A DNA stretch of 64,000 nucleotides from Holophagales bacterium. Its GTDB lineage: Bacteria; Acidobacteriota; Thermoanaerobaculia; Multivoradales; UBA5704. Shown here piece by piece: positions 5,152 through 49,345 of the stretch; position 1 is the first letter of the stretch, and each line of letters starts with the position of its first letter. Where the stretch lies: contig JANMTS010000109.1 in the NCBI GenBank assembly GCA_031390755.1, positions 5,773-69,772 on the forward strand, read 5' to 3'. The notes beneath the pieces were generated by a model. The model saw only the letters and a program-made list of their open reading frames with translations. It was not told where the DNA came from and did not search any database. The translations under genes and the position numbers were made by a program.

Positions 5152-5277
5152 GCGGTTGTCTCCCAAGCGGTTTGTCATGTGCTCCTCACCAAATGCGGTG
5201 GATGATGATGGACAAGGTTCAGGCGGCGCCGGGCGCCGGCTCATTGTGACGTACGTACGGCGTTTCAAAAGGTTACC

Positions 5278-6279: not shown

Positions 6280-7154
6280 GGAGCGGTCTCCATGGTCCCC
6301 GCAGTCCCCGCAGGTTCCACGGTGGTCCGGGAGCCGAGCCGCGGCACGAGGGAGAGCAGCTCGCGGGTGCAGGGATGGGCCGGCGCGCGGAACACGTCGA
6401 CGACCGTGCCCTCTTCGACGATCCGTCCCGCGTCCATCACGGCCACCCGGTCGCAAGTCCCGGCCACGACGCCGAAGTCGTGGGTGATCAGGAGGATGGA
6501 GAGACCGAGCTCGTCCCGGAGCTCCTCCAGCAGCTCCAGCACCTGGGCCTGGATGGTCACGTCGAGCGCGGTGGTGGGCTCGTCCGCCAGCAGCAGGCTC
6601 GGACCGGCGGCGAGCGCCACGGCGAGCATGACCCGCTGCTTCTGGCCGCCCGAGAGCTGGTGCGGATAGTCGTCCAGCCGGCGGCGGGCGTCCGCCAGGG
6701 CCACCCGCTCCAGCAGCCGCACGGCTTCGTTGCGGGCCTCGGCGCGGGTGACGGACCGGTGCGCGCGAATCGTCTCCGCGATCTGGAACCCGATCGGCCA
6801 CACCGGGTCGAGAGCGGTCGACGGCTCCTGGAAGACCATGCCGATGCGGCCGCCCCGGACCTTGCGCATCTCGCGCTCCGGCAGGCTCAGAAGGTCCACG
6901 GCGTTTCCGGCGGTGTCTCCAGTGCCGCCAGTGCCGCCAGTGCCGCCGGGCGTGTGCAGACGGATGCGGCCGGCGACGCGGGCCGTCGGCGGCATCAGGC
7001 GGAGGATGGACAGCGCGGTGAGGCTCTTGCCCGATCCCGATGCTCCCACGAGCCCGACGATCTCGCCCTGTCGGATCGAGAGCGACACGCCGCGCACCAC
7101 CGGAGGCCCGGGAGGGAACGACACCTCCAGCCCGTCGATCTCCAGCAGGGTCAC
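6276..7154 (-). CDS. Oligopeptide/dipeptide-type ABC ATPase (DppD/OppD-like)
   Basis: GTG start at 7154 with GGAGG 5-6 nt upstream. Motifs: [65 protein letters not shown]. No permease or binding-protein gene is nearby. Confidence 0.85.
6912..6947. repeat. In-frame 9-bp tandem repeat (agtgccgcc x3 plus one degenerate unit) inside the DppD-like gene
   Basis: ggtgtctcc agtgccgcc agtgccgcc agtgccgcc encodes ..[12 protein letters not shown].. on the coding strand. This is an insertion relative to the usual DppD sequence between the Walker A region and the FQEP motif. Confidence 0.8.
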
Positions 7155-7353
7155 TCCGCCTCCTGCAGCACATCCGCCATTCGACACCCTCCGAAAAGCC
7201 CCCAGGACGGCAGAGTTTAGCAGGTGCGGGCCGGCCCTCACCCGCTGTTTGCCTGCCTGCCGTGGACCCGGCGGGGTGAGGGGGGACGGGACCGTTCGGG
7301 CTGTGGTATACGTACCGCTCAAATCCGGTCTCCATCGCGAGTGGTGCATCACC

Positions 7354-9360
7354 ATGGAATCGACGCCTCTTGTGCAGCTCCTGCAGGGTCCGTTCAACTT
7401 TCTGCGTCCGGACATGGAAGAGGTCCGCCGCCTGGTGCCGGAGCTGCACCGCGCGCTCCCGACGCCCCGCCCCATCTATCTGGAGGACGAGAGCGCCACG
7501 CCGATCCACGGCTTTCCCATCCTCTGCTCGGCGAACATGGACGCTCTCGGCAAGAGCCTCGGGCAGTTCCTGCTCGCCGAGGAAGGCGCGCAGGTGGCCG
7601 CCGCCCGCCGCGACACCATCGACCGCAAGGCCTACGCCCAGTCCTGGGAGCGCTACTGCCTCCAGCTCTCGCGCGCCGTGGAGAACGCCACGATCTCCAG
7701 CTACGGCCGCCAGTACCCGGCCGTCTTCTGGCTCCATCACTCCCTGGAGATCGCGCGCATCCTCAAGGACACGCCGCGGCGCATCCTGCGCATCGACTCC
7801 GAGCTGGGGCGCCGGCACGGCGACACCATCAAGTTCCGGATCCTCGACCGCTACCTGGACCGCGTCCTGGCCACCACCTACGAGATCGTCCAGAAGGTGG
7901 CCGGCGCCACCGAGGAGGTCGAGGAGGAGCTCTTCCCGCGCCTCCTGACCCGCATGCGCGACAACGTCCTGGTCTTCACCGAGGACTACATCGGCCGCGA
8001 TCTGGGCGAGCTCACCAGCTATTTCAACGGCTCGCTCCACATCGATGGCCGGGACTTCCGGCAGCGCCTCGCCGCGGTGGAAGCCTGGCACGCGGCCCAG
8101 CTCCAAACGGACCCGGAGCTGCGCAGCCTCGCGGCCAACCTGCTGCGCCACGACCTCAAGGGCGACCCGCGCGACCTGCTGATCCGGCCGGGCTACATCT
8201 CCCATCTCGCGAGCCACAAGGCGTACAACGCCGCGAAGCTGCTGCCTCCCCCGCTGGTCCAGGTGTGGGAGAGCCTGCTGGTCAAGCTCAAGGAGTTCGA
8301 GCTCTTCCACAGCTTCCGCAAGAGCCTCGTGCCGGTCGACATCACCGAGACCACGGTGACGGCGCGCGAGACGCCAGGCAGCCGTTCGGGCGCGGCCCCG
8401 GTGCGCCTCTCCTACGCCACGCGGCCGCTCGACTTCCTGGAGCCCTGGGTGGTGGACCCGCGGGTCGAGCGCTTCGGCATGATCTACGACATCAGCGACT
8501 TCTCCCAGACCCTCTCCGTGCTCCACCGCGCCGGCACCGAGAGCCAGGACGACGCCTTCCGCAAGATGTTCCGCTTCCAGCGGCGCATCAACCGCCTCGC
8601 CCTGGCGCACCGGGTGAAGCTCGAGAAGTACCTGGGCGACGGCGCCTTCTACTCCTGCCGCGAGGCCGTCAAGCTCCTGATCTGCTCGCTCCAGATCCAG
8701 CGCCTCTACGACGAGGCGCTGCGCGAGGGTTTCCCCTTCGACCGCGGCATGCGCATCGCCCTGAACTACGGCGCCTACCGCCTGATCCCCATGGGCACCG
8801 GCCGGGCCGGCGAGGGCGAGCGCTACGAGTTCTTCGGCCCCGGTCTCGTCGAACTGTCGCGCCTGACCACGGGCAAGGGCACGCAGGAGATCGAGGAGGT
8901 CAAGACCATGCTGATCAACCAGGGCTTCTCCCCGGGCCACGTCCACGGCTTCTTCGCGCCGCTCGCCGAGAAGGACGTGGACGTCGTGGACAAGAAGGAG
9001 GAGTCCCGGCGCTTCTACGCCTATCTCAACCGCAACGGCACCCTGCACAACAACGGTCTCGTGGCGACCGCGCCCTTCATGCAGAGGTTGGAGAAGGAGC
9101 TGGGCCTCCGGACGCTGCACCGGGCCACCGACGGCGAGCGCGTCTACGTGCTCCTCGATGTCGAGGACGGCGGCGTCGCGGCGACCTTCGGCGTCCGCAA
9201 GCTCGGGCACGCCCAGCTCAAGGGATTGGAGAAGCTGCCCGTCTTCGAGCTGGTGGACGGAGGCGGCCTGGACCCGGCCTCGCACCAGGAGATCCGGAAT
9301 GAGACGCTGGGGCCGGCGATCGAGCGCGTGTTCACGAGCGGCAGTCTCAGCAGGAAGTAA
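7354..9360 (+). CDS. Hypothetical 668-aa soluble protein with a divergent class III nucleotidyl-cyclase-like (CHD) domain
   Basis: ATG at 7354 within track ORF 6730..9360. The N-terminal ~440 aa are helical and unrecognised. The C-terminal region has RFGMIYDISDFSQ (like vlFaDIvgFT), KLEKYLGDGAFYS (like KtiGDavma) and MRIALNYGAY...YEFFGPGLVELSRL (like iGihtG...GdtVNtAsRl, with the Asn replaced). Confidence 0.6.
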   Translation: MESTPLVQLLQGPFNFLRPDMEEVRRLVPELHRALPTPRPIYLEDESATPIHGFPILCSANMDALGKSLGQFLLAEEGAQVAAARRDTIDRKAYAQSWERYCLQLSRAVENATISSYGRQYPAVFWLHHSLEIARILKDTPRRILRIDSELGRRHGDTIKFRILDRYLDRVLATTYEIVQKVAGATEEVEEELFPRLLTRMRDNVLVFTEDYIGRDLGELTSYFNGSLHIDGRDFRQRLAAVEAWHAAQLQTDPELRSLAANLLRHDLKGDPRDLLIRPGYISHLASHKAYNAAKLLPPPLVQVWESLLVKLKEFELFHSFRKSLVPVDITETTVTARETPGSRSGAAPVRLSYATRPLDFLEPWVVDPRVERFGMIYDISDFSQTLSVLHRAGTESQDDAFRKMFRFQRRINRLALAHRVKLEKYLGDGAFYSCREAVKLLICSLQIQRLYDEALREGFPFDRGMRIALNYGAYRLIPMGTGRAGEGERYEFFGPGLVELSRLTTGKGTQEIEEVKTMLINQGFSPGHVHGFFAPLAEKDVDVVDKKEESRRFYAYLNRNGTLHNNGLVATAPFMQRLEKELGLRTLHRATDGERVYVLLDVEDGGVAATFGVRKLGHAQLKGLEKLPVFELVDGGGLDPASHQEIRNETLGPAIERVFTSGSLSRK

Positions 9361-9412
9361 GAGCGGAAGCAAGGAGCCGTTCCTAGGGTCGGCCTCTGAT
9401 ATCGTCCCCGCC

Positions 9413-10318
9413 ATGGAATCCGTGCTCTGGCAAAGCGACCTCCCCGGCTTCGGCCCGCCCCGGCGGGGCAAGGTCCGGGACGTGTACGACCTCGGAGAGA
9501 CCCTGCTCATCGTCGCCTCGGACCGGCTGTCCGCCTACGACTTCGTGCTCCAGCCGGGGATCCCGGACAAGGGAAAGATCCTCAACCAGCTCTCGAACTT
9601 CTGGTTCGAGAAGCTCGCGGACGTGGTGCCGAACCACCTGCTCGCCACGGACCCCGCGGACTTCCCCGCAGCTCTCGCGCCGTTCAAGGATGTGCTTCGG
9701 GGCCGCTCCGTCCTGGTGCGCCGCGCCAGGGTGGTGCCGTTCGAGTGCGTGGCCCGCGGCTACCTGGCCGGCAGCGGCTACCGCGAGTACCGGGCCTCGC
9801 ACACGGTCTGCGGCATTCCGCTGCCCGCCAATCTGGACCGGGCGAGCCCGCTTCCCCACCCCATCTTCACCCCGGCGACCAAGGCCGCCGAGGGGCACGA
9901 CGAGAATTGCACCTTCGAGATCGTCGAGCAGGCCCTGGGCCTGGAGCTGGCCACCCGGCTCCGCGACCTGACGCTCGATCTCTATACGAAGGGGGCCTCG
10001 GCGGTCGCCGAGCGCGACCTGATTCTGGCGGACACGAAGTTCGAGTTCGGGTTCGCTGACGACTCGGACGCCGGAACCCTCCTCCTGATCGACGAGGTGA
10101 TGACGCCGGATTCGTCGCGCTACTGGGACGTCAAGCGCTGGGTCCCCGGCGAAGAGCCGGCCTCGTTCGACAAGCAGTACGTGCGGAACTGGCTGGACGA
10201 TTCCGGCTGGGACCACCAGTCTCCCCCGCCCGTCCTGCCCGAGGAGGTGGTGAGGGGAACCCGCGAGCGCTACATCGAGGCGTTCCGGAAGATCACGGGG
10301 CGGGAGCCGGAGCTGTAA
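9413..10318 (+). CDS. purC: Phosphoribosylaminoimidazole-succinocarboxamide synthase (SAICAR synthetase)
   Basis: 301 aa starting MESVLWQSDLPGF..GKVRDVYDLGETLLIVASDRLSAYD..ADTKFEFG..LIDEVMTPDSSRYW, which are hallmark PurC motifs. Confidence 0.92.
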   Translation: MESVLWQSDLPGFGPPRRGKVRDVYDLGETLLIVASDRLSAYDFVLQPGIPDKGKILNQLSNFWFEKLADVVPNHLLATDPADFPAALAPFKDVLRGRSVLVRRARVVPFECVARGYLAGSGYREYRASHTVCGIPLPANLDRASPLPHPIFTPATKAAEGHDENCTFEIVEQALGLELATRLRDLTLDLYTKGASAVAERDLILADTKFEFGFADDSDAGTLLLIDEVMTPDSSRYWDVKRWVPGEEPASFDKQYVRNWLDDSGWDHQSPPPVLPEEVVRGTRERYIEAFRKITGREPEL

Positions 10319-10402
10319 GAGGGTGTTTGGAAAGGCTGGGGCCGGGGGTGAGGGCCGCAGGCCTCAGACGCCCGAGGAACGGGACTTTCCAAACACCCTC
10401 TT
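10317..10402. repeat. Perfect 18-bp inverted repeat (aagagggtgtttggaaag / ctttccaaacaccctctt) with a 50-nt spacer between convergent genes
   Basis: The left arm 10317..10334 starts inside the purC stop codon. The right arm 10385..10402 encodes the ..KRVFGK.. C-terminus of the small minus-strand ORF. The spacer contains ggggccgggggtgaggg, which resembles the terminus of the element at 51671..51867. Confidence 0.7.
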
Positions 10403-10558
10403 GATCTCGTCCTGGGAGACGACTCGCCCCTCGTTCGCCGCCTGAAGCCCGATCGCGATTTTTTGACGCACATAGAGCTCATAGAGAAGCTCATCCCAGG
10501 TGGCGTGATCAGGCAGACGCTCAATCACCTGCAGCGCTTCCTCCTTGACCGTACTCAA
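10364..10558 (-). CDS. Small (64 aa) antitoxin-like protein with no cognate toxin gene adjacent
   Basis: TTG start preceded by a strong AAGGAGGA. The sequence ..VIERLPDHATWDELLYELYVRQKIAIGLQAANEGRVVSQDEIKRVF resembles a small-protein family usually found as the antitoxin-side partner of type II TA pairs (recognised from memory, not searched). Confidence 0.5.
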   Translation of the reverse strand: MSTVKEEALQVIERLPDHATWDELLYELYVRQKIAIGLQAANEGRVVSQDEIKRVFGKSRSSGV

Positions 10559-10645
10559 CCGATCCTCCTTGTCACCGTCCCTCCATCAGCCTCAATCTTA
10601 CCAGCCCGAAGCGGCTCCATGCAGGAGGCCGAGTCCATGGATTCT

Positions 10646-10885
10646 GTTGCAACCAGCCCGCAACTCACAGCAGAAACCCTGTCATCTCGCGTCAAGCTCT
10701 TGTTTGTCGCATCCGCAAACCCGCGAGTCGCATCAGAAATCCTGCTTGTTGCATCAACTCACGGCATTGTCGCATCCACAACCTGAACTTCTGCTGCGAC
10801 AAACAGGGAATCGGATGCGACTCGCGGGGATTCTGATGTGACAAACGAGGTTTCTGCTGCGACAAACTCGTTTGTCGCAGCAGAA
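10646..10885. repeat. Phased short-motif array: 4 forward + 4 reverse GT(C/T)GCA cores at exactly 21-bp spacing, ending in a 34-bp perfect palindrome
   Basis: Forward GTCGCA/GTTGCA cores are at 10706, 10727, 10748 and 10769. Reverse TGCGAC/TGTGAC cores are at 10795, 10816, 10837 and 10858, with one more forward at 10874. The palindrome is ttctgctgcgacaaac-tc-gtttgtcgcagcagaa at 10852..10885. A 15-bp inverted pair cccgcgagtcgcatc (10720..10734) / gatgcgactcgcggg (10814..10828) is also present. G+C is about 53% in the one 60-nt line I counted. Confidence 0.8.
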
Positions 10886-10919
10886 TTCGGGAAGTTCGCG
10901 TCAAAAAACTCGGGTGGTT

Positions 10920-12368
10920 CTAGCGCACGGCGCCCAGCAGGTACTTGATGTTCTCGTCGTTCCAGCGGATGCCGCCGCCGAGGAAGTACGAGTCGTTCTC
11001 CAGGAAGTCGTCGTAGCCTCCCAGCAGGTACAGGTTGGGATGGAAGCGCCAGCGGCCGGTCAGGCGCAGATGCGGGGAGAGATCCTGCGGCCGGCTGAAG
11101 TCGAAGGCCTCGAACGAGACCAGGAAGCGGTCGCTGAGCAACGGCATCTCCACCTGGGCGCCGCCGGTGTTCTCGATCAGGCCGGCGAACAAGCGGATGT
11201 CGCGCGGCGCGCGGTAGCCGAAGAGCGCGGTGGCCGCGTAGGTCTTCTCGTTCGTGATGGTGCTGATGGTCGTCGTGTCGACCGAGCCGTTCGGGTTGGT
11301 CACGGTCACGGTCTGGGACTTCTCCCGCCGCTTGCCGCCCGGCGGGCTGCTCACGCCGGCCCGGTAGAGCCGCGTCTTGTCCTGCGGGTCGATGTCCAGG
11401 AGGAATGTGGTCTGGGACTCCTCGGGATCTCCCAGGTAGTAGCCCTGCAGATCGAGGTCGATCTTGAACTTGTTCACCGCACCGAGGGTGCCGCTCAGGG
11501 TCTCGACGCCGCCCTGGATGCTGTCCAGGGTCGAGAGCACCTGGTCGTAGGCCTTCTCGTCGTTGACGAGTTTGCCGATCGTCCCCTCGCCGCTGGCGAT
11601 CTTGCCGGAGATCTTGTTGACGTTGTCGACCGACACCTGAAGCCGGTCGGTGACCTCGCGGATGTTCGCGAGGCTGGTCGAGACGTTGCCGCGGTTGTCG
11701 GCGACGAGGGTCTCGATCTGGCGCAGGGTGCGGTCCATCTGATCGGCGAGCCGGGGCAGCTCGCTGGCCAGGATGGCGCTCGCCTGGTTCGCGTTGGCCA
11801 GGGTCGAGGAGAGGTTCGCGCGGTTCTCGGCCACCACCAGGCGGATCTCCCGGCTGGTCAGCTCGAACTCCGAGATCAGGCGGTTGATGCTGTCCCCCAG
11901 ACTGGCCCCGGAGAGCGAGCCGGTGATCTGCTGGATCGAGGTGCCGATGTCGTTGATCTTGGCGATGGCCTCGTCGATGCTGGGCGGCGTCTTGCCTGGG
12001 AGGACCGCGCCGGGCGCCAGCAGCGGCGCATCCAGGGGGCCGGGAATGAGCTCGATGTACTTCTCCCCGAGGAGGCCCAGGTTGGCCACCCGCGCGTAGC
12101 TGCCCTCGGTCAGGTTGACCGGCTGCTCCAGCACGAGCGTCACCCGCGCGCGGCGGCCGCTCAGGCCCACGGAGTCGACGCGGCCCACGCGCACACCCGC
12201 CACGCGCACGGTCGCCTTGTCGTCGAGGCCGGCGACGGAGTCGAACTCCGCCTGGATCTTCTTGTCGTCCTTGGCGAATGGATTGAGGTCTTCGATCTTC
12301 CAGACCAGAACCGCGAGGACAATGAGACAGATGGTGGCAAAGAGGCCCACCTTGACAACTTGGTTCAT
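10920..12368 (-). CDS. mlaD: MlaD/MCE-domain protein (long form, coiled-coil plus C-terminal domain)
   Basis: Start at MNQVVKVGLFATICLIVLAVLVW (GGAGGGG upstream). The MCE domain reads AEFDSVAGLDDKATVRVAGVRVGRVDSVGL, followed by long helical repeats. Stop is TAG. Confidence 0.8.
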   Translation of the reverse strand: MNQVVKVGLFATICLIVLAVLVWKIEDLNPFAKDDKKIQAEFDSVAGLDDKATVRVAGVRVGRVDSVGLSGRRARVTLVLEQPVNLTEGSYARVANLGLLGEKYIELIPGPLDAPLLAPGAVLPGKTPPSIDEAIAKINDIGTSIQQITGSLSGASLGDSINRLISEFELTSREIRLVVAENRANLSSTLANANQASAILASELPRLADQMDRTLRQIETLVADNRGNVSTSLANIREVTDRLQVSVDNVNKISGKIASGEGTIGKLVNDEKAYDQVLSTLDSIQGGVETLSGTLGAVNKFKIDLDLQGYYLGDPEESQTTFLLDIDPQDKTRLYRAGVSSPPGGKRREKSQTVTVTNPNGSVDTTTISTITNEKTYAATALFGYRAPRDIRLFAGLIENTGGAQVEMPLLSDRFLVSFEAFDFSRPQDLSPHLRLTGRWRFHPNLYLLGGYDDFLENDSYFLGGGIRWNDENIKYLLGAVR

Positions 12369-12438
12369 CGACACCCCTCCGGCCTTGAGTCTATCAGCAG
12401 GCACCCTGATCGGACGGATCGACTATGCTCAAAACCCG

Positions 12439-19115: not shown

Positions 19116-19119
<4 letters not shown>
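18733..19119 (+). CDS. SnoaL-like / DUF4440 (NTF2-fold) protein
   Basis: 128 aa: IAEIERRIMAAFAAGDADAVAAQYTEDALLLPPG...GKYLAIARRDSDGVWRFHRDAFN. Its TAG stop shares the CTAG tetranucleotide with the convergent NRPS stop. Confidence 0.7.
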
Positions 19120-25576
<6,457 letters not shown>

Positions 25577-25669
25577 GCCGCGCTGGGCATGGGAGAGCGG
25601 CAGATCCCGGCCGCGGGGCGCGGGGAGGATCGGCGGCAGCCTCTCTCTCCGGCTGGAGGCGATGCGCCG

Positions 25670-25870
25670 GGACAGCTCGGCGATCGTCGGCGCCTCGAAG
25701 ACATCGCGCGGGGTCAGGTCCGCCCCCAGCGACTCCCGCACCCGGGAGAGAACCCGAAGGATCAGCAACGAATGGGCGCCGAGCTCGAAGACGCTCTCGC
25801 GGACGCCGACGCGGTCGAACCCGAGAACCTCGGCCCAGATTCCGGCCAGCGCCTCCTCGGTGGCGTTGCC
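25670..25870 (-). other. NRPS carrier domain T1 (Ser codon 25769..25771)
   Basis: ALAGIWAEVLGFDRVGVRESVFELGAHSLLILRVLSRV. The motif is GAHS instead of the usual GGHS. Confidence 0.8.
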
Positions 25871-25934
25871 CGGCGCGTCCAGGGCCAGGCCGGTCCGCTC
25901 CCGATCGGGATCCATGGGCTCGATCGCGGCCAAC

Positions 25935-27430
25935 GCCTTGCGGTCCACCTTGCCGTGCGGATTGAGAGGCATCGCGTCCAGATGGACGAACACCGAAGGC
26001 GTCATGAAGGCCGGCAGCCGGCCGCTCAGGAAACCCCGCAGGTCGGCGTCCGGGCTCCCCGCCCAGAAGGCGACGAGCCGCTTGTCTCCTCCTTTCCCCT
26101 GAACCACAACGGCGGCCTCGGCCACATCCGGACGCGCTGTCAGGGCGGCCTCGATCTCGCCCAGCTCGACACGGAAGCCGCGGACCTTGACCTGGTGATC
26201 GACCCGGCCCAGAAACTCCAGCCGGCCGTCCGCCCGCCAGCGGACCCGATCCCCCGTGCGGTAGAGGCGCTCCCCCCGGCCTTCCTCTCCCCAGAAGGGG
26301 TCCGGCACGAAGCGCTCGGCCGTCAGCTCCGGACGGTCGAGATAGCCCCGGGCGAGACCGTCGCCACCGACCCACAGCTCCCCTTCCACCCCTGGCGGCA
26401 CGAGTTGGAGCTGCCGGTCCACCACCGCGACCCGGGTGTTGCCGGTGGGCCGGCCGATCGGCAGCGGCGATTCGACCTCCCGGGGCGACGCCATCGGATG
26501 GCACGACGTGAACACCGTGCTCTCGGTCGGGCCATAGCCGTTGACGATCCGGATTCCGGGCGCCGCCGCGAGCACCCGGGCCACGTGCGCAGGCGACAGC
26601 ACGTCGCCGCCGGACAGGATCAGCCTCAGGCCGGTCAGGCTCTGGAGCTGGTCGTCCACCATCTGGTGGAACAGGCCCGCCGTCAGCCACGCCGCGGTGA
26701 CTCCGGAGCGGACCAGGAACGCCCCCAGCTCCTCCAGGCTCGGAGCCTCCGGCGGCGGGATCGCGAGCGCCGATCCGTTGAGCAGCGAGCAGGCGATCTC
26801 CAGCGTCGTGGCGTCGAACGAGAGCGGCCCCAGGTGGAGAAAGACGTGGTCGGATCCAAGCTCCGCGAAGCGCGAGCTGCGGGCGAGCCGGGCCACGCTG
26901 CGGTGGGTCACGGCCACGCCTTTGGGCTGGCCCGTGGAGCCGGAGGTGTACATGACGTAAGCCAGGTTCTCCGGCGCAACCCTGGCAACGCTTTCGGGCG
27001 TGGCGGGCTCGAAGCCGGGCGACCCGACAGGAACATCTTCGAAGAAGATGACGCGCGCCGCCGTCTCCGGCAGCCGGTCCCGCAGACCGCGGCGGGTGAC
27101 CAGGACGGGAGCCGCCGTGTCCTCCAGCATGAAGGCGAGGCGGTCGGCCGGATAGGCGGGGTCCAGGGGCGCGAACGCGCCGCCGGCCTTGAGGATCGCC
27201 AGGATGGCGACGATCGCCTCGGGCGAGCGTTCCAGGCAGAGCCCCACGAGCCGGTCCGGCCCCACTCCCTCGGCCACGAGAATCGAGGCGAGCGCGTCGG
27301 CCCGCGCGTTCAGCTCGGCGTAACTCATCTCGCACCCGCCACCCCCGGCATGCCCGCCGATATGGCGGAGCGCCAGGGCGTGCGGCGCGCGCCGCACCTG
27401 CTCTTCGAACAGCTGGTGCATGCAGGCGTC
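25935..27430 (-). other. NRPS adenylation domain A1 (approximate bounds)
   Basis: The core runs from LFEEQVRRAP to HGKVDRKAL. Hand-extracted specificity residues are D-A-L-W-L-G-G-V-F-K, close to remembered Val codes (DALWLGGTFK). Confidence 0.75.
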
Positions 27431-27587
27431 CCGGGGATAGGGCACCTCTGTGTCGTTCCACTCCGTGAGGAGCTGCGAACGCTGTGCTGCCGAGAGGACG
27501 CACTGCTCTTCGCCGTCTGGACGCAGATACTCCATGTCTGGCACCCCTGCAAGATTTCCTGTCTTCTCTACCCTCGTAGTGCTCCGT

Positions 27588-27623
27588 CCCCCCAAAGCCG
27601 AGCCCGGCTTGAGCCTGGGGGGG
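27588..27623. promoter_or_regulatory. Imperfect GC-rich palindrome in the 127-bp divergent NRPS/PKS intergenic region (candidate operator)
   Basis: ccccccaaagccgagcccggcttgagcctggggggg: outer C6A/TG7 arms and an inner aagccg/cggctt stem. It is the only obvious dyad between the two start codons (27535 and 27663). Confidence 0.3.
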
Positions 27624-27662
27624 CGAGAGGCTACCATTTTCGTCCTTCAACGAGGCGCCGCC

Positions 27663-30600
27663 ATGAACCATGAGCCCGAGCCCGACCAACCCGACGACCC
27701 CTCCGCCGCCCCCGAAGCCGTCGCCATCGTCGGCATGGCCGGGCGCTTCCCACGTGCCCGCAACCTGGACGAGCTCTGGAGCAACCTGCGCGACGGCGTC
27801 GACTGCGTCCGCGATCTCACCGACGACGAGCTGCTGGCGTCGGGCATCCCGCCGGCCGTCTTCCAGCAGCCCGGCTACGTCCGGGTGGCCGCGCCGATCG
27901 CCGACCCCGATCTCTTCGACGCCGCCTTCTTCGGGTTCTCGCCCCGCGAGGCCGAGGTGCTCGATCCCCAGCAGCGGGTGTTCCTCGAAACCGCCTGGGA
28001 GGCGCTGGAGTCGGCCGGCTACGTGTCGGAGAGCTACCCGGGCTGGATCGGCGTCTTCGCCGGCATCGCCTTCCCCACCTACCTGCTGCACAACCTCCTG
28101 TCCAACCCGGAGCTGATGGAGTCCATCGGCGGGTTCCCCATGCTCCTCGCCAACGACCGCGACTACTTCGCGACCCGGGTCTCCTACAAGCTCAACCTGC
28201 GTGGCACCAGCGTCAACGTCCAGACCGCGTGCTCGACCTCGCTGGTCGCCGTACACATGGCCTGCCAGAGCCTGCTTGATTACCAGTGCACGCTTGCGCT
28301 GGCCGGCGGCGTGCGGGTCTACGTGCCGCAACTCACCGGTTATCCCTACGCAGAAGGCGGCATCTTCTCGCCAGACGGCCGCTGCCGCGCGTTCGACGCC
28401 GAGGGCCGTGGCGCGCTGTTCAGCGAGGGTTGCGGAGTGGTCGTGCTCAAGCGCCTCTCGGAAGCGCTCGCCGACGGCGACCCCATCCACGCCGTGATCC
28501 GCGGCTCGGCCACGAACAACGACGGCTCGAACAAGGTCGGCTATACGGCCCCGAGCATCGACGGCCAGTCCGAGGTCATCGCCATGGCCCAGGCCGCGGC
28601 GGGCGTCGGCCCGGATTCGATCTCGTACGTCGAAACCCACGGCAGCGGCACGCCGCTGGGCGACCCCATCGAGATCGCGGCGCTGACGCGGGCCTTCCGC
28701 TCCGGAACCGACCGGACCGGCTTCTGCTCCCTCGGCTCGCTCAAGGCGAGCGTCGGCCACATGGAGTCGGCGGCCGGCGTGGGCGGGCTCATCAAGACCG
28801 TGCTCGCCCTGAAGAACCGCCAGATCCCGCCGAGCCTCCACTTCCGGACGCCGAACCCGCGCATCGACTTCGACTCCAGCCCCTTCCGGGTGAGCACGAA
28901 GCTCTCGGACTGGCCGCGCCGCGGCGAGCCGCGGCGGGCCGGGGTCAGCTCCTTCGGCATGGGCGGGACGAACGCCCACGTCATCGTCGAGGAGGCGCCG
29001 GAGCGCGAGCCCTCGGGCGCCGCCAATCCCTGGCAGCTCCTGCTCCTCTCCGCCAGGACGCCCACGGCCCTGGAGTCCGCGACCGACCGGCTGGCCGACT
29101 GGATGGAGGCGCACCCCGAGGCCCCGCTCGCCGACGTGGCGTTCACGCTCCAGACCGGCCGCCGCACCATGCCCCACCGCCGGGCGCTCGTCTGCCGGAG
29201 CCGCGAGGACGCCCTCGCCGCGCTGCGCGGCCGCGACCCCAGGCGGCTGACGGGCAGCGTCCAGGAGATCGCGGAGCGTCCGGTCGTCCTGATGTTCCCG
29301 GGCCTCGGGGACCATTACGTGGACATGGGGCTCGACCTCTATCAGAGCGAGCCCGCGTTCCGGGATGCGCTCGACGAGTGCGCGGAGCTTCTGAAGCCGG
29401 TCCTGGAAGAGGACATCCGCGACGTGATCTACCCCCGCGGAACGGACGCCCCGGCGCAGCAGGAGGCCGGAGCTTCGGAGCGGGTCGATCTGAAAGCCAT
29501 GCTGGGACGCGCGCTGTCCGGCGAGGACGAAGCCTCCCGGCGGCTGAACCGGACCCGCTTCGCCCAGCCGGCCCTGTTCGCGGTCGAGTACGCGCTCGCC
29601 CGGCTGCTGGAAGAGTGGGGGCTTCGTCCGGCCGCCCTGGTCGGCTACAGCCTGGGCGAGTACGTGGCCGCCTGCCTGGCCGGAACGCTCTCCCTGGAGG
29701 ACGCCCTCTCCCTGGTGGCGGAGCGCGCGCGGCTGATCGACGGCGTGGAAGCCGGCGCCATGCTCGCGGTTCCTCTCCCCGAGGACGAAGCGCGCCGGAC
29801 GCTCGCGGAGTTGGATTCCGGTCTTTCCATCGCCGCGATCAATGGGCCGTCCCTGTCCGTGATCGCCGGCCCGGTGCCGGCCTTGGACGCTCTGGAGCGG
29901 CAGCTGACCGGCCAGGGGATCGCCTGCCGGCACCTCTCCACCACCCACGCGTTCCACTCCGGCATGATGGAGCCGATCCGGGAGCGGATGGTTCAGATGG
30001 CGCGGCAGGTGCGCCTGTCGCCGCCCGGCATCCCCTTCCTCTCCAACGTCACCGGAACCTGGATCACCGCGTCGGAGGCGACCGACCCGGCCTACTGGGG
30101 ACGCCACCTCTGCCAGGCGGTGCGCTTCGGTCCTTGCCTTGACGAGCTGCGAAAGAACCCGGCCCGCGTCCTTCTGGAGGTCGGCCCCGGGCTCAGTCTC
30201 ACGACCCTCGCCCTGCAGACCGTCGGCGAGGAGCCGGCGCCCCTGGCGCTCCCAACCCTGCGCCCCTCGTACGATCGGCAGCCCGATTCGGCCTTCCTGC
30301 TCGGAGCGCTCTCCCGGCTCTGGCTCGCCGGTCTCTCGCCCGACTGGGCGGAGCACGCGGGCCGGACCGGGGTGAGGCGGAATCGCCTCACCCTGCCCAC
30401 CTATCCGTTCGAGCGGCGGCGTTTCTGGATCGATGCCCCGGGGCAGAAAACCTCCGCTGCCGAGGCACGCTCCGAGGCGCCGGAGACCCTGACCCGCCAT
30501 GCCCGTCCGGATCACCTGCGAAACCCCTTCGCGCCGCCGTCCAACGATTTGGAGCGCGGCCTCGCCGAGATCTGGCAGGAGATCCTGGGGATCGGCGAGG

Positions 30601-31997
30601 TGGGGATCCACGACAGCTTCTTCGAGCTGGGCGGCCACTCGCTCGTGGCGCCGAAGATGATCCTCCAGGTGCGGGAGGCCTTCGGCGTGGACTTCCCCCT
30701 GAGCCACCTGTTCGAGGCGCCGACCGTGGCCGGAATGGCCGCCGCCGTGGAGATCCTCCGGCAGGAGGGCGAGCTGGCTGCGGCCCCGGAAGTGGATCTC
30801 GCCGCCGAGGCCGTGCTCGCCCAGGACATCCGCGCCGAGGGCGAAGCCCCAGACCCGGAGAGGATCGCCCGCCCGCGCGAGGTCGTCCTCACGGGCGTCA
30901 CCGGCTTCCTGGGGTCGTTCCTGCTGCGCGAGCTTCTCCGCCAGACCGACGCCCGCGTTCACTGCCTGGTTCGCGCCAAGAGCTCCGAAGCGGGGCTCGA
31001 ACGCATCCGCTGCAAGCTCTCTGAGGCGGGGATCTGGAGCCACGACATGGCGGCGCGGATCGTCGCCGTGCCCGGAGATCTGGAGCTTCCGCGCTGGGGG
31101 TTGTCCGAAGAAGGGTTCGACGGCCTCGCCGGCCGCGTCGACGCGGTCTACCACTGCGGGGCCTGGGTCAACTTCACCTACCCCTACAAGGCGCTCAAGG
31201 CGGCCAACGTCACGTCCACGGAAGACGCCCTCCGGCTCGCGGGCCGGCGCCGGACCAAGCCGGTCCACTTCATCTCCTCCATCGCCGCGGTGTCGCCCGC
31301 GGGTGTCACCGGGTCCGTGGTCCTGGAGGACGCCGACTACCCCACGACCGAGGGCCTCTTCGCCGGCTACGGCCCGACGAAGTGGGTCTCGGAGCGGCAC
31401 GTCGCCGAGGCGCGGGACCGGGGCATCCCCGGCAGCATCTACCGTCCGGGCGTCCTCGCGGGCGACAGCCGCAACGGCTACGGAAATACTCAGGATCTGG
31501 TCTGGAATCTGATCAAGGGCTCGATCCAGCTCGGAGCCGCTCCGGAGCAGGACAACCTCATGGATGTGGCGCCGGTCGACTCCGTGCCCGCGGCCATCGT
31601 CCGCCTGTCCCTGTCCCCCGGTCTCCTCGGAAAGACCTTCCACTTCCCGAACCCCAAGCCCATGACCTGGAACGAGGTCTACGATGTCGCCCGCGCCTGC
31701 GGCTACCCGCTCCGGCGCCTGTCGCCCGGCCAGTGGCTGGACGAGTTGCGGACCGCCATCCGCCAGGGCGCCGACAACGCCCTGGCCCCCTTCGCGCCAC
31801 TCCTGGACGCCGCCGCGGCCCAGGAAGAGACCGGCACGGCCGAGCAGCCGAAGGATCTGATCTTCGACGACCGCAACACCAGGGCGGGGCTGGAAGGATC
31901 GGACATCGCCTGCCCGCCCCTCGACGCCAAGCTGCTCGCCCTCTGGTTCGACTCTTTTGCGCTCAGCGGCTTCCTGCCTCCGCCGCCTAGATCCTGA
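27663..31997 (+). CDS. Type I polyketide synthase module with terminal thioester reductase (KS-AT-T-R)
   Basis: 1444 aa from MNHEPEPDQPDD. KS: DPQQRVFLE, VQTACSTSLV, ETHGSGTPLGDP, KASVGHMESAAG. AT: VGYSLGEY, THAFHS. Carrier: FFELGGHSLV. Reductase: VLTGVTGFLGSFLLREL, YGPTKWVSE. Confidence 0.92.
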   Translation: MNHEPEPDQPDDPSAAPEAVAIVGMAGRFPRARNLDELWSNLRDGVDCVRDLTDDELLASGIPPAVFQQPGYVRVAAPIADPDLFDAAFFGFSPREAEVLDPQQRVFLETAWEALESAGYVSESYPGWIGVFAGIAFPTYLLHNLLSNPELMESIGGFPMLLANDRDYFATRVSYKLNLRGTSVNVQTACSTSLVAVHMACQSLLDYQCTLALAGGVRVYVPQLTGYPYAEGGIFSPDGRCRAFDAEGRGALFSEGCGVVVLKRLSEALADGDPIHAVIRGSATNNDGSNKVGYTAPSIDGQSEVIAMAQAAAGVGPDSISYVETHGSGTPLGDPIEIAALTRAFRSGTDRTGFCSLGSLKASVGHMESAAGVGGLIKTVLALKNRQIPPSLHFRTPNPRIDFDSSPFRVSTKLSDWPRRGEPRRAGVSSFGMGGTNAHVIVEEAPEREPSGAANPWQLLLLSARTPTALESATDRLADWMEAHPEAPLADVAFTLQTGRRTMPHRRALVCRSREDALAALRGRDPRRLTGSVQEIAERPVVLMFPGLGDHYVDMGLDLYQSEPAFRDALDECAELLKPVLEEDIRDVIYPRGTDAPAQQEAGASERVDLKAMLGRALSGEDEASRRLNRTRFAQPALFAVEYALARLLEEWGLRPAALVGYSLGEYVAACLAGTLSLEDALSLVAERARLIDGVEAGAMLAVPLPEDEARRTLAELDSGLSIAAINGPSLSVIAGPVPALDALERQLTGQGIACRHLSTTHAFHSGMMEPIRERMVQMARQVRLSPPGIPFLSNVTGTWITASEATDPAYWGRHLCQAVRFGPCLDELRKNPARVLLEVGPGLSLTTLALQTVGEEPAPLALPTLRPSYDRQPDSAFLLGALSRLWLAGLSPDWAEHAGRTGVRRNRLTLPTYPFERRRFWIDAPGQKTSAAEARSEAPETLTRHARPDHLRNPFAPPSNDLERGLAEIWQEILGIGEVGIHDSFFELGGHSLVAPKMILQVREAFGVDFPLSHLFEAPTVAGMAAAVEILRQEGELAAAPEVDLAAEAVLAQDIRAEGEAPDPERIARPREVVLTGVTGFLGSFLLRELLRQTDARVHCLVRAKSSEAGLERIRCKLSEAGIWSHDMAARIVAVPGDLELPRWGLSEEGFDGLAGRVDAVYHCGAWVNFTYPYKALKAANVTSTEDALRLAGRRRTKPVHFISSIAAVSPAGVTGSVVLEDADYPTTEGLFAGYGPTKWVSERHVAEARDRGIPGSIYRPGVLAGDSRNGYGNTQDLVWNLIKGSIQLGAAPEQDNLMDVAPVDSVPAAIVRLSLSPGLLGKTFHFPNPKPMTWNEVYDVARACGYPLRRLSPGQWLDELRTAIRQGADNALAPFAPLLDAAAAQEETGTAEQPKDLIFDDRNTRAGLEGSDIACPPLDAKLLALWFDSFALSGFLPPPPRS
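27720..28995 (+). other. PKS ketosynthase domain (Cys codon 28230..28232)
   Basis: VAIVGMAGRFP...TACSTS...HGSGT...VGH...GTNAHVIVEE. Confidence 0.85.
29283..30190 (+). other. PKS acyltransferase domain (Ser codon 29649..29651; malonyl-type HAFHS at 29946..29960)
   Basis: VVLMFPGLGDHY..RTRFAQPALFAVEYALA..VGYSLGEYVAACLAG..THAFHSGMM. A Tyr replaces the usual His of GHSxG. Confidence 0.85.
30549..30755 (+). other. Carrier protein domain (PCP-like; Ser codon 30639..30641)
   Basis: LAEIWQEILGIGEVGIHDSFFELGGHSLVAPKMILQVREAFGVDFPLSHLFEAPTVAGMA. Confidence 0.85.
30885..31990 (+). other. Terminal thioester reductase (TD/R) domain
   Basis: VVLTGVTGFLGSFLLRELLRQTDARVHCLVRAKS (NAD(P)-binding), AVYHCGAWVNF, YGPTKWVSE (YxxxK). 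Confidence 0.85.
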
Positions 31998-47175: not shown

Positions 47176-47633
47176 GCGGGGATCCTACACCGCCGCTGCG
47201 CTCTCAAAATCCGATAGCATTCCCTGGAAATGCCCGAGCTTCTCGTCGACGACCTACGGAGAGAGATCCAGGCCGGCCGCCTCCTCGTGGTGGTTAGCCT
47301 GGGAGAGCATTAGGATGCCGGTTCTGGTGGGCGAGTTGGTAGAGGACTTTGCCGAGGAGTCGTGAAGGTGCCCTTCCCGCCTGCGTGCCTTCTCGCCAGA
47401 GCTTGGCCGACCTCGTCGCGAATCTCGTCCTTGCCAGGAAAGGGACGGGGTGAGGAGAGAGAACCATAGAGGTCAGCAAGCCGCTGCCGGTTGAGCGCTT
47501 TCATTTGCTCGGAGGTCACCTCGAACATCACATCGTCCCCTTGATCGATATTGGACACTGCCGTACCTCCCTTCAACTCCTACTCTATCGCCTCTAGATG
47601 CCAGGTTCCCACCGCTGACGGTATGCTCCGCTC

Positions 47634-47861
47634 ATGAAACGCACAACTCTTGTGCTGGACGAGCAGCTCCTCGAAGAAGTCACGCGCGTCAGCGGAGAGA
47701 GGACGTACTCCCGTGCAGTGACCCGGGCCCTTGAGGACTATTTACGGCGTCACCAAGCGGGGCGCATCTTCGAGCTCGCCGGAGCGGGGCTCTGGGAAGG
47801 AAACCTCTCCGAGATGAGGAGAGATGCACCAGCAGCCCAAGGTCGTCGTGATTCTCGTTGA
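47634..47861 (+). CDS. vapB: VapB-type antitoxin (PSK/Rv0623-like family)
   Basis: MKRTTLVLDEQLLEEVTRVSGERTYSRAVTRALEDYLRR...LWEGNLSEMRRD matches the MRTTLdlDdeLl..a..ltg.. antitoxin family. Confidence 0.75.
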   Translation: MKRTTLVLDEQLLEEVTRVSGERTYSRAVTRALEDYLRRHQAGRIFELAGAGLWEGNLSEMRRDAPAAQGRRDSR

Positions 47862-47931: not shown

Positions 47932-48363
47932 ATGGATCTCCACGACCTCCTCCACGGCCTCGCCGACGCCGTTGCTCCCCTGCTCGCGCTGCTTGCCCTG
48001 CTGAACCCGCTGATCCGGCCCCCACTGGGCGACCGGCGGGCCGTCGTCCGGTACTTCATTGCAGCGGCTCTCGGAGTCGCCTTCATCTACCTCGTCGCGG
48101 GGATCGACTCCGCCTTCGGCCTCTGGCCTCGCGCGGGTCTCGACTACAGCACGCACACGGCGTTCACCACGACGTTGCTGGTGTCATTGTGGGCATCCCG
48201 GCCGGGATGGGTCTGGGGATTGGGGACGGTGCTGGTGGGATATGGGGCGCTGATGGTCGGGCTTGGCTTTCACAGCGTCGCCGATGTCTGCACGGCGGCG
48301 ATCGTTGCAGCGGCAGTCACCCTGCCTCTTCACGGCGCTCGCTCCTTCCGGAGCCCTCAATAA
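47932..48363 (+). CDS. Small integral membrane protein with degenerate PAP2-like motifs
   Basis: 143 aa with 4 TM segments. WPRAGLDYSTHTAF (compare PSGHT) and GFHSVADVCTAAIV (compare HxxxD) resemble acid-phosphatase motifs 2 and 3; motif 1 is not evident. Confidence 0.45.
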   Translation: MDLHDLLHGLADAVAPLLALLALLNPLIRPPLGDRRAVVRYFIAAALGVAFIYLVAGIDSAFGLWPRAGLDYSTHTAFTTTLLVSLWASRPGWVWGLGTVLVGYGALMVGLGFHSVADVCTAAIVAAAVTLPLHGARSFRSPQ

Positions 48364-48750
48364 TGCCGCAACCTCGACTTCTTCACCGCAACACAATCTT
48401 ATGTTGCGGCATGGCATCCTTCTTTTGCCGCAACCTTGACTTGTTCGCCGCAACCTGACTTCTTTTTGCGGTGAACACCTTGGCCTTGCCGCAACCTAAG
48501 TTTTTTCACCGCAATCTAGATTAATTTTGCCGCAACATAAGCTTCTTGACCGCAAGTCAAACTTATTCACCGCAAGTTGCCGCAACCATGCCGCGACTTG
48601 TCCCTATTCGCCGCAGACTTGACTTTTTCACCGCAACCCAGGATTGTTCACCGCAACGTGGCGCCAGCCAGGGGTCGCTTCGCGGGTTTGCCGCAACCTT
48701 GGAGCCCCTGACAGCGCGGTCGGCTGAGTCGCTGAATTTTGCCGCAACCT
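48364..48750. repeat. Iteron-like array: 18 CCGCAA-core units at 20-21-bp phasing in a ~50% G+C intergenic region
   Basis: Forward cores are at 48366, 48386, 48428, 48448, 48489, 48509, 48530, 48550, 48570, 48580, 48591, 48611, 48631, 48651, 48691 and 48742. Reverse TTGCGG cores are at 48404 and 48466. Units alternate between TTGCCGCAAC (near-palindrome) and TTCACCGCAAC, often followed by CTTGACTT. I counted 30/60 and 29/60 G+C in the first two lines. Confidence 0.85.
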
Positions 48751-48773
48751 CTCTTGAGGAAGGAAGACGGGGC

Positions 48774-49271
48774 ATGGGATCGAAGCTGTCGGTCGAAGAG
48801 ATTCTGGCGGGGCTGGAAAAGCGGGCGGCTGCGCTTCGGGAGAAGGAGGCCTTCCATGCGCAGCAGGAAGATCACCATCGGGAGCAGCGGGCGCTTCATG
48901 CGGCCGAGCTTCAGAAGGTGGAGGCGAGCCTCGAGGCGTTCCGGACGGCGGCGTCCCCCGCGGTCGAGCTTGCGGCTCCGGTACGGGACCGGGCAGGCTC
49001 CGAGGAGGAGAGTCTTCCGGGGCCGGGGCGCCTCCTGGTCAGCCGGCTGGTGCGGATGACGGCGCTGAGCCCCACGCTGGACCAGCCGTTCGGTCCCAGC
49101 GCCGTGGCGACGGAGGTGAACCGCCGCTACCCGAAACAGCTCTCCAGGCCGGTCGACATCCGCGCGGCGTCCGACGTGCTGCGGCGGATGGCGGCCGAGG
49201 GCTGGATCCGGCTCGACCGGCCGGGGAAGGCGTTCCACGAGGCCCTGTACACCCGCATCCATCAAGGGTGA
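48774..49271 (+). CDS. Hypothetical 165-aa protein (coiled-coil N-half, possible winged-helix C-half)
   Basis: ATG at 48774 preceded by GAGGAAGGAAG. It reads MGSKLSVEEILAGLEKRAAALREKEAFHAQQEDHHREQ... and ...IRAASDVLRRMAAEGWIRLDRPGKAFHEALYTR. The part of the track ORF upstream of 48774 merely reads through the repeats. Confidence 0.55.
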   Translation: MGSKLSVEEILAGLEKRAAALREKEAFHAQQEDHHREQRALHAAELQKVEASLEAFRTAASPAVELAAPVRDRAGSEEESLPGPGRLLVSRLVRMTALSPTLDQPFGPSAVATEVNRRYPKQLSRPVDIRAASDVLRRMAAEGWIRLDRPGKAFHEALYTRIHQG

Positions 49272-49345
49272 CGCGGAAACGGACGCCTCCTTGACAGCCG
49301 GACCCGGGAGGCCAGACGATGACTGGCATTGCGAGGAGCCTCTCC

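Follow-up and report, generated by a model that had tools for sequence, protein, structure and literature searches.

A 64,000-nt stretch of a Holophagales bacterium genome (GCA_031390755.1, contig JANMTS010000109.1, positions 5,773 to 69,772; the whole stretch is hereafter the window, and array coordinates are given in its numbering) carries a phased array of short direct repeats with a CCGCAAC core, immediately upstream of the gene for a 165-amino-acid (aa) protein with a predicted winged helix-turn-helix (wHTH) domain. We propose, at a probability of roughly 0.6, that array and gene make up a self-contained cis/trans module, whose product would coat the repeats and form a self-repressing, centromere-like nucleoprotein landmark. 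The protein founds a new family, one without a Pfam or NCBIfam model. Between clades of this family the core motif of the array tracks the recognition helix of the protein, and no partner gene, be it for a nucleoside triphosphatase (NTPase), a Rep protein or a recombinase, is conserved beside the module.

The phased array and the 165-aa protein

An earlier note on this DNA had counted 16 forward and 2 reverse CCGCAA-type cores, and our recount gave the same totals. Fourteen forward copies of CCGCAA are exact (48366 to 48742), two carry a one-base change (CCGCGA at 48591 and CCGCAG at 48611), and the reverse form TTGCGG occurs at 48404 and 48466. Only 30 forward copies were found in the remaining 63.6 kb of the window; at that background rate, 0.18 copies are expected in 387 bp, and the Poisson probability of at least 14 is 4e-22. 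The longer motif TTSMCCGCAAC, with at most one mismatch allowed, gave 16 matches window-wide, 9 of them inside the array (shuffles, 3.0 +/- 1.7).

Successive forward cores lie 20, 42, 20, 41, 20, 21, 20, 20, 10, 11, 20, 20, 20, 40 and 51 bp apart, exactly as listed before. Of these 15 spacings, nine measure 20 or 21 bp, a number reached in none of 20,000 random placements (maximum 6), which puts the phasing beyond chance. Autocorrelation within the array peaks at lags 20 (0.41), 41 (0.43) and 61 (0.44) against a background of 0.245, indicating a mean period of about 20.4 bp. A position weight matrix (PWM) scan of the same array returned 16 forward and 3 reverse sites, with 80% of spacings in phase.

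The array also stands out in composition, with a G+C content of 54% at 48364-48750 and 48.5% at 48400-48599 against 69% for the whole window. The units resemble one another outside the core as well, in a T-rich stretch on its 5' side and in a GACTT/AAGCTT block that follows CCGCAAC, and the extended unit approximates TTnTT-(G|CA)-CCGCAAC-C-(T)TGACTT/AAGCTT. The two unit types that had been described as alternating, TTGCCGCAAC and TTCACCGCAAC, do so only partially. Tandem Repeats Finder detected a 3.3-copy fragment at 48489-48555 and missed the rest, so that ordinary repeat finders and standard annotation would largely overlook an array of this kind.

The array is made of phased, protein-binding-type repeats, in keeping with the earlier judgement that it is neither coding sequence, nor a terminator, nor an array of clustered regularly interspaced short palindromic repeats (CRISPR). 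The last identity was rejected because the units are 20 bp long, contiguous and degenerate outside a 7-bp core, with no spacers. The principal features are collected in the table. Reversed units near the distal end of the array recur at related loci (L004, L044 and L040/L051; loci are designated by L numbers throughout), as do tight core clusters resembling that of the window (L004, L006 and L014). At the other end, 25 nt separate the final CCGCAAC from the ATG of the 165-aa open reading frame (ORF).

Features of the module and of a second array in the 64-kb window
Feature	Coordinates	Strand	Description
Phased repeat array, CCGCAAC core	48362..48751	+	16 forward and 2 reverse units; counts, spacing, shuffles, simulation
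First head-to-head pair	48386..48409		CCGCAAC (48386-48392), 10-bp spacer, GTTGCGG (48403-48409); palindromic, near gene-distal end
Second head-to-head pair	48448..48471		CCGCAAC (48448-48454) and TTGCGG (48466-48471)
Compressed three-core cluster CCGCAAGTTGCCGCAACCATGCCGCGAC	48570..48597	+	One-turn spacing, 10 and 11 bp
Two promoter-proximal units	48691..48748	+	48691-48697 and 48742-48748, 51 bp apart, flanking the presumed promoter region
Shine-Dalgarno-like GAGGAAGGAAG	48756..48766	+	7 nt 5' of ATG; read directly from the sequence
Gene for the 165-aa protein	48774..49271	+	Predicted helix 7-67, disordered 68-85, winged helix-turn-helix 86-161
Gene-less second array	10706..10881		Four forward GTCGCATC-type units, four reverse, one forward, all exactly 21 bp apart

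AlphaFold2, run with a 50-sequence alignment, modelled the 165-aa protein with high confidence, at a mean predicted local distance difference test (pLDDT) score of 86.5. Foldseek against the PDB returned only winged-helix proteins (eS25, Fur/Zur/PerR, PadR, MarR, BlaI and TubR; best E = 2.7e-3), which bears out the winged-helix-like C-terminus suggested before. TubR (3m8e) stood at rank 46 with E = 0.049, no better than Fur, PadR and MarR, and a viral fold search in BFVD yielded generic helix-turn-helix (HTH) proteins only. The predicted recognition helix comprises residues 129-142 (RAASDVLRRM).

Sequence searches placed the protein in no established family. The ORF matched neither Pfam nor NCBIfam, and a Pfam scan of 50 family members placed none of them in a family either, with no match to a Rep family, DUF536 or MerR. 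Weak matches to SeqA_N in 16 of the 50 members (E of at least 0.058) were taken to reflect the short ASD[VI]LRRML helix only and judged not meaningful, and profile searches against PDB sequences produced designed helical repeats and coiled-coil noise only.

Conservation is highest in the N-terminal helix, with a mean pairwise identity of 55% versus 43% for the wHTH domain. Read in heptads, this helix presents a hydrophobic seam (V7, L11, L14, A18, L21 ... L46, V49, L53, F56) that is broken by a polar centre (E25, H28, E32, H35, R39, H42), in which H28, H35 and R39 never vary and E25 and E32 hardly do. This invariant His/Glu/Arg core could be a register determinant.

Linkage, co-variation and descent of the module

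A protein database clustered at 90% identity holds 176 homologues, whose meaningful organism names are all Thermoanaerobaculia or Acidobacteriota. An exhaustive search at E <= 1e-3 collected 449 representative clusters (50% identity), all of about 165 aa and without fused domains; the longer members are frameshifted, and frameshifted database members include P0249, P0252, P0258 and P0229. For comparison, we scanned one genome per GTDB species, obtaining 50 loci, all from metagenome-assembled genomes (MAGs) of Thermoanaerobaculia/Acidobacteriota and many on contigs of 0.15-8.8 Mb. Genomes carry 2-5 paralogues: one 5.9-Mb contig (CAWAUI010000004.1) bears four copies (L016, L040, L050 and L051), MFD06742 has five, one of them truncated, and two other MAGs have three each.

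In a PWM-refinement scan, where a positive array required at least 12 sites and at least 64% of spacings in 20/21-bp phase, a phased array was found upstream of the gene at 33 of the 45 homologue loci with enough upstream sequence and in none of 44 control regions of equal size. The association of array and ORF is much stronger than could be seen in the earlier note, being kept, with co-varying specificity, across these 33 loci. Periodic arrays of 20/21 bp (and 40/42 bp) adjoin the gene at almost every locus, the largest comprising 20-25 units; in the parE-parC-linked clade of L037, L046 and L049 the array lies directly downstream of the gene instead. In the 20-kb homologue loci, no more than one periodic non-coding array was detected per locus, save in L024. 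Other periodic or repeated segments were rejected as arrays: those of 21-bp period in L031 (16.5-17.0 kb) and L009 (6.4-6.8 kb) encode heptad repeats, and a threefold CCGCAACGC repeat at window position 33688 is coding sequence.

The core motif changes together with the recognition helix. Arrays built on CCGCAAC or CCGCGAC accompany R[TA]ASDVLRRM, those built on TGTCGCA accompany ..SVTLRRL, and GACGCGTAG or GGCGCATAG is paired with ..ST.LRRL; GTCGCAA.. occurs with RLAS[AT][AV]LRRL, and CAACC..TGTAC with KKLVSIALRRM. Orthologous arrays of three species align one-to-one over all 18 of 18 units, core columns being 89-100% invariant and spacer columns 33-56%. Cores so constant, set between variable spacers, are the mark of position-specific purifying selection on each single putative site. 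Most relatives of the window's clade also possess a TGnTATCnT extended -10-like box 15-125 bp 5' of the start codon, which a unit overlaps or abuts, implying self-repression of the gene.

Comparison of whole loci showed that exactly array and gene are conserved together as one unit. Between L031 and L033, 1.0 kb of array and gene is 83% identical and nothing else is shared within +/-9 kb, and L040/L051 represent a duplicate inside one genome that covers array and gene only. Neither of these relocated modules displayed terminal inverted repeats or target duplications, a search of low power given their strongly diverged flanks. Other locus pairs are syntenic on both sides of the module, and the protein tree resolves deep clades that each sample overlapping sets of genomes. 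Together, the two-sided synteny and deep clades point to old paralogy and vertical descent with occasional relocation, duplication and decay. Decay is visible in fragments or truncated copies of the family gene (L001 7141-7571, L018 13718-13894 and L052 10001-10216), which, together with the frameshifted members, indicate pseudogenisation within the family.

These results do not sustain the suggestion that the array is a relic, or a domesticated piece, of a plasmid or integrative element. Searches of 72,556 plasmids, 50,697 phages and IMG/VR found no homologue of the family protein. The loci lie on chromosome-size contigs, several clades look vertically inherited, and no Rep, ParA/ParM/TubZ, relaxase or integrase gene is conserved beside the module. 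A relic of a plasmid, a phage or an integrative and conjugative element was rejected on these grounds, no mobile-element genes being enriched among 149 neighbouring proteins.

Neighbouring genes and gene-less arrays

All-against-all BLAST of the ORFs at 51 loci revealed no recurrent neighbour. A Pfam scan of the 149 flanking proteins assigned 180 families, none enriched, with no signal for ParA, ParM, TubZ, Rep, relaxase or integrase; neither DnaA/DnaN nor an actin- or tubulin-like NTPase was among the 25 commonest families. The sole recurrent neighbourhood runs parE, parC, wHTH gene and then array (L037 at 4466-11000, also L046, L049 and L053), with parC assigned by TIGR01062 at 1072 bits and a Fic-domain gene between parC and the wHTH gene in L037 and L046. 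This synteny may be merely inherited, the genomes being closely related.

In the window, the module lies between an unknown membrane ORF and TolC. The upstream ORF (47932-48363), a hydrophobic protein of 143 aa whose stop codon abuts the first array unit, matched no Pfam or NCBIfam family, and its earlier label 'PAP2-like' was not upheld. Downstream, an efflux operon of TolC, HlyD and ATP-binding cassette (ABC) genes begins 47 bp after the 165-aa gene. Of the toxin-antitoxin remnants noted nearby, the VapB-type antitoxin encoded at 47634-47861 is real (PF09957, E = 1e-9), with no evident intact VapC/PIN partner downstream and an unassigned 88-aa ORF on the opposite strand close by (47310-47576). 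Elsewhere in the window, a 4175-codon ORF on the minus strand (19116-31643) contains short in-frame 9-bp tandem repeats (e.g. 22390-22429).

Two arrays stand without a family gene of their own. The units of the second window array start at 10706, 10727, 10748 and 10769 (forward), 10793, 10814, 10835 and 10856 (reverse) and 10874 (forward), between a 64-aa ORF without a family match (10364-10558, minus) and an MlaD/MCE gene (10920-12404, minus). Its motif resembles the arrays of another family clade (L020 and L025), and the 64-kb window contains no paralogue of the 165-aa gene; the array probably serves a paralogue whose gene lies beyond the window, or else is what is left of a module. In L024, a gene-less 21-bp array at 7800-8090, in which GTGATGCAAC alternates with ATGACGCAAC, lies 1.3 kb upstream of the locus's own module. 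The surrounding island contains, by eye, a tyrosine-recombinase-like ORF, a HigB/HigA-like pair and an AbiEi-like ORF.

Further elements were observed next to individual modules. At L002/L007, which represent the same place, the stretch just before the array (about 2.3-5.3 kb in L002 coordinates, directly upstream) holds genes for a Mu-type transposase (rve, Mu-transpos_C) and an AAA_22 ATPase as well as a DUF6431 gene; this set looks like a Tn7/Tn5053-like insertion abutting the array. L033 has a long, perfect palindrome (GTAGGGGCGGCCCTGTGTGGCCGCCC ... GGGCGGCCACACAGGGCCGCCCCTAC) directly downstream of the module, at about 10500-10620, which looks like a hairpin of the repetitive extragenic palindromic (REP) kind.

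Proposed function, rival explanations and known systems

A small, apparently autoregulated wHTH protein beside a repeat array and without an NTPase is the arrangement of single-protein plasmid segregation systems, and for this reason we rank the centromere-like landmark first. Each C-terminal winged helix would read one unit of about 20 bp, its recognition helix contacting CCGCAAC in the major groove and its wing the A/T-rich AAGCTT/GACTT block alongside. Subunits would be coupled into dimers or higher oligomers by the 60-residue helix at the N-terminus, and the 18-residue flexible linker would allow paired domains to sit on successive direct repeats. Because units recurring every two helical turns place all copies on one face of the DNA, cooperative polymerisation would be possible, giving a filament of about 18 subunits on the array, and the slight under-winding of a 20.4-bp rather than a 21-bp repeat would lend it a shallow superhelical path. 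Units next to the promoter would make the gene self-repressing, and the product would be a large, sequence-addressed nucleoprotein landmark on the chromosome. The several paralogous modules of a genome would differ in DNA specificity while sharing the more conserved N-terminal helix. We infer binding, stoichiometry and autoregulation from the sequence; by analogy, the cellular role would be chromosome positioning or organisation rather than replication.

Among known systems, the closest in logic appear to be the NTPase-less single-protein systems: pSK1 Par, R388 StbA/stbS, RacA/ram and RocS. In R388, the array lies upstream of its own autoregulated gene, and StbA dimers bind consecutive repeat pairs cooperatively on one face of the DNA (10.1101/2022.04.29.490116). 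The stbS site has two sets of five nine-bp repeats on an 11-bp cycle and the plasmid encodes no NTPase for it; pSK1 Par is a second single-protein, NTPase-less plasmid example (10.1101/2022.04.29.490116). As with StbA and Par, a gene for a small HTH/wHTH protein adjoins a phased direct-repeat array here. Unlike those plasmid-borne systems, the module is chromosomal and multi-paralogous, and the window array has about 18 units on a 20.4-bp cycle; the wHTH domain, N-terminal in StbA and Par, is C-terminal in the 165-aa protein, which has no sequence relationship to either.

Par, RacA and RocS each combine a wHTH domain with a coiled coil; RacA binds repetitive centromere-like sites, and RacA and RocS act without a dedicated NTPase in cis (PMC11500499). 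Like RacA of B. subtilis and RocS of S. pneumoniae, the 165-aa protein is chromosomally encoded and joins a wHTH domain to a long helix. RacA and RocS, however, have a MerR-type N-terminal wHTH domain and a C-terminal DivIVA- or membrane-binding tail, and one protein serves many dispersed sites. In contrast, the wHTH domain described here is Fur/PadR/MarR-like, no membrane or DUF536 element was detected, and every paralogue adjoins a tandem array of its own. Membership of the Par/RacA/RocS type was therefore rejected, the domain order being reversed (helix 7-67, wHTH 86-161) and DUF536 and MerR matches absent.

The earlier comparison with iterons and with centromeres bound by small DNA-binding proteins named the right class of analogy. 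Phased direct repeats are shared with ParR/parC (R1, pB171 and pSK41) and TubR/tubC (pBtoxis), which lie upstream of an autoregulated operon and are coated into a continuous superstructure, TubR being a winged-helix protein on seven 12-bp repeats. These type II and III centromeres differ in that they are plasmid- or phage-borne and that ParR is a ribbon-helix-helix protein, and no ParM or TubZ occurs at any of the 51 loci. A ParMRC or TubZRC partition locus was accordingly rejected, with no such NTPase recurring beside the module in the 51 loci or among the 25 commonest families of the flanking proteins; the fold, a wHTH, is not ParR-like. Lambda Xis is a small protein of the HTH/wHTH type that polymerises head-to-tail on direct repeats. 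Polymerisation of the same kind, on variable numbers of direct repeats, is reported for Streptomyces BldC (PMC5859096). BldC and Xis differ from the 165-aa protein in having no coiled coil, in using 2-6 repeats at many promoters or at attR, and in lacking a dedicated array beside their own gene.

Several observations weigh against a centromere-like landmark. A chromosome has segregation machinery of its own already, and why it should need a centromere-like function at 2-5 additional loci is not obvious. The protein's N-terminal coiled coil and C-terminal, non-MerR wHTH domain differ from Par, RacA and RocS, so that the resemblance would be one of analogy and not of homology. A sigma-70 promoter scan of the window locus returned zero matches and did not locate the promoter. 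Arrays are weak or undetected at about a quarter of the loci (L009, L016, L035, L039, L043, L045 and L003), and the gene-less arrays (window 10706-10881; L024 7800-8090) show that genes and arrays are not always paired one to one. Some co-variation of motif with protein would be expected simply because neighbouring DNA is inherited together, and the invariant His/Glu/Arg helix core could serve metal- or pH-dependent assembly or a partner interface. All organisms bearing the family are uncultured MAGs, and the proposed binding is read from their sequences.

The main rival, which we consider unlikely although it deserves serious weight, is a pure transcriptional device. The protein would be an autoregulator or a regulator of downstream genes (in the window, the efflux operon), and the array an operator of excessive size, or else a decoy or a buffer that titrates the protein and makes its response sharper or later, without any architectural or segregation role. 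This reading draws on the constant adjacency of gene and array, on the units that abut or overlap the -10-like box in most relatives of the window's clade, and on the efflux operon 47 bp downstream. The invariant His/Glu helix core would suit metal- or pH-sensing, with Fur-type wHTH domains among the fold matches. However, 16-25 sites spread over 400-550 bp upstream of a promoter go far beyond what repression needs, the array lies 3' of the gene in one clade, and unit-by-unit conservation argues for a function of the whole array. As an operator for downstream genes, a form of the operator array that the earlier note had also considered, the array is not supported: the downstream genes are unrelated between loci, neighbours differ at nearly every locus, and the spacer between gene and operon (49272-49318) holds no unit.

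Somewhat less probable again is the possibility that the paralogous modules act together as a previously unrecognised chromosome-organisation system, in which every array would be a sequence-addressed landmark under a coat of its own paralogue. The shared N-terminal helix, with its invariant His/Glu/Arg core, would then bridge arrays, folding chromosomes of 6-9 Mb, or recruit a common machine to several defined loci. One clade, with its parE-parC-gene-array synteny, offers the only hint of such a machine and would point to topoisomerase IV. Assembly in such a system might be metal- or pH-dependent.

Two further readings are weakly supported. In the first, which we regard as doubtful, the array is an iteron replicator and the protein a minimal initiator, the locus being either an origin captured from a plasmid or an additional origin of the chromosome, comparable to the origin/initiator pairs of Sulfolobus. 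The layout is the classic one of Rep_3/RepA iteron plasmids (17-22-bp iterons): direct repeats of roughly 20 bp set two helical turns apart, a few inverted copies, an adjacent winged-helix gene, and specificity classes whose distribution over paralogues resembles incompatibility groups. Units of L001/L002 contain TTATCCAC, the cumulative GC-skew minimum of the window falls at about 46-49 kb, and over 34 loci the flanks show a weak change of skew from minus to plus (mean difference 0.018, P = 0.026).

The molecular parts of an iteron replicon are nevertheless missing. The protein has a single winged helix in 165 aa versus the WH1-WH2 pair of a Rep initiator, matches no Rep family, is chromosomal and has no plasmid or phage homologue; the number of repeats in the window array is two to five times that of typical iteron sets. 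There is no DnaA-box cluster (one 2-mismatch match in the array) and no separate A/T-rich unwinding block in the window, L021, L023 or L044, and only one subclade has the resemblance to TTATCCAC. The change in flank skew is slight, is confounded by divergent gene orientation and carries no clear mark of an origin, with 12 loci minus-to-plus, 6 plus-to-minus and 16 of the same sign on both sides, and the window minimum stems for the most part from a single C-rich TonB-receptor gene. We also know of no bacterial chromosome with several active origins. Identification as oriC or an extra origin was rejected in view of the missing DnaA-box cluster, the absence of DnaA and DnaN from the 25 commonest families of the 149 neighbouring proteins, the 2-5 copies per genome and the weak, confounded skew.

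More doubtful still is a polar barrier, in which the coated array would block replication forks or transcription, as in RTP/Ter or Tus/Ter, whose sites also precede their own autoregulated genes. RTP is a winged-helix protein that dimerises through a coiled-coil helix, and Ter sites lie just upstream of rtp, a likeness that counts for this reading, as do the strong directionality of the arrays (16 forward to 2 reverse units in the window) and the expectation that a dense protein array would impede polymerases. Orientation relative to strand skew is inconsistent, however, with 8 loci positive on both sides and 8 negative on both sides, and known terminators bind one or two dimers per site rather than 18 units. 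Several paralogues, each with its own array, are unlike the design of a fork trap, and neither sequence nor top-ranked fold matches pointed to RTP or Tus.

That the array binds no protein and lies beside the ORF by chance, either as a repeat family of a selfish or REP-like kind or as the sequence from which a structured noncoding RNA is transcribed, is effectively excluded: the plus strand folds somewhat better than shuffles (z = -2.45) because its two reversed units pair with forward ones, yet the minus strand reaches only z = -1.70, Rfam gave no match at E <= 5, conservation falls on fixed core positions and not on compensatory pairs, the linkage to the gene is 33/45 versus 0/44, and the window contains a single CCGCAAC array with no dispersal of the motif. 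The scattered REP family that the earlier note had named as a potential refutation was likewise not seen in the 64 kb; REP elements and bacterial interspersed mosaic elements were rejected, the outside copies being isolated and the arrays tied to the gene.

Phased arrays coated by a cognate small protein are an organising principle of plasmid centromeres and iteron origins. To our knowledge, such arrays are essentially without precedent as stand-alone, multi-copy, vertically inherited features of bacterial chromosomes. The module described here is a conserved chromosomal variant of this principle of phased array and cognate binder, built on an undescribed protein family, and it brings a clear putative DNA target to a new family of 449 clusters. 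Its natural orthogonal protein/array pairs, with their readable recognition code, could serve as synthetic parts for DNA tagging or partition. If the role proves to be segregation, bridging or recruitment of topoisomerase IV, single-protein, NTPase-less centromere systems would be extended from plasmids to chromosomes. The finding also points to unexplored chromosome biology in the Thermoanaerobaculia, an abundant and almost uncultured soil lineage.

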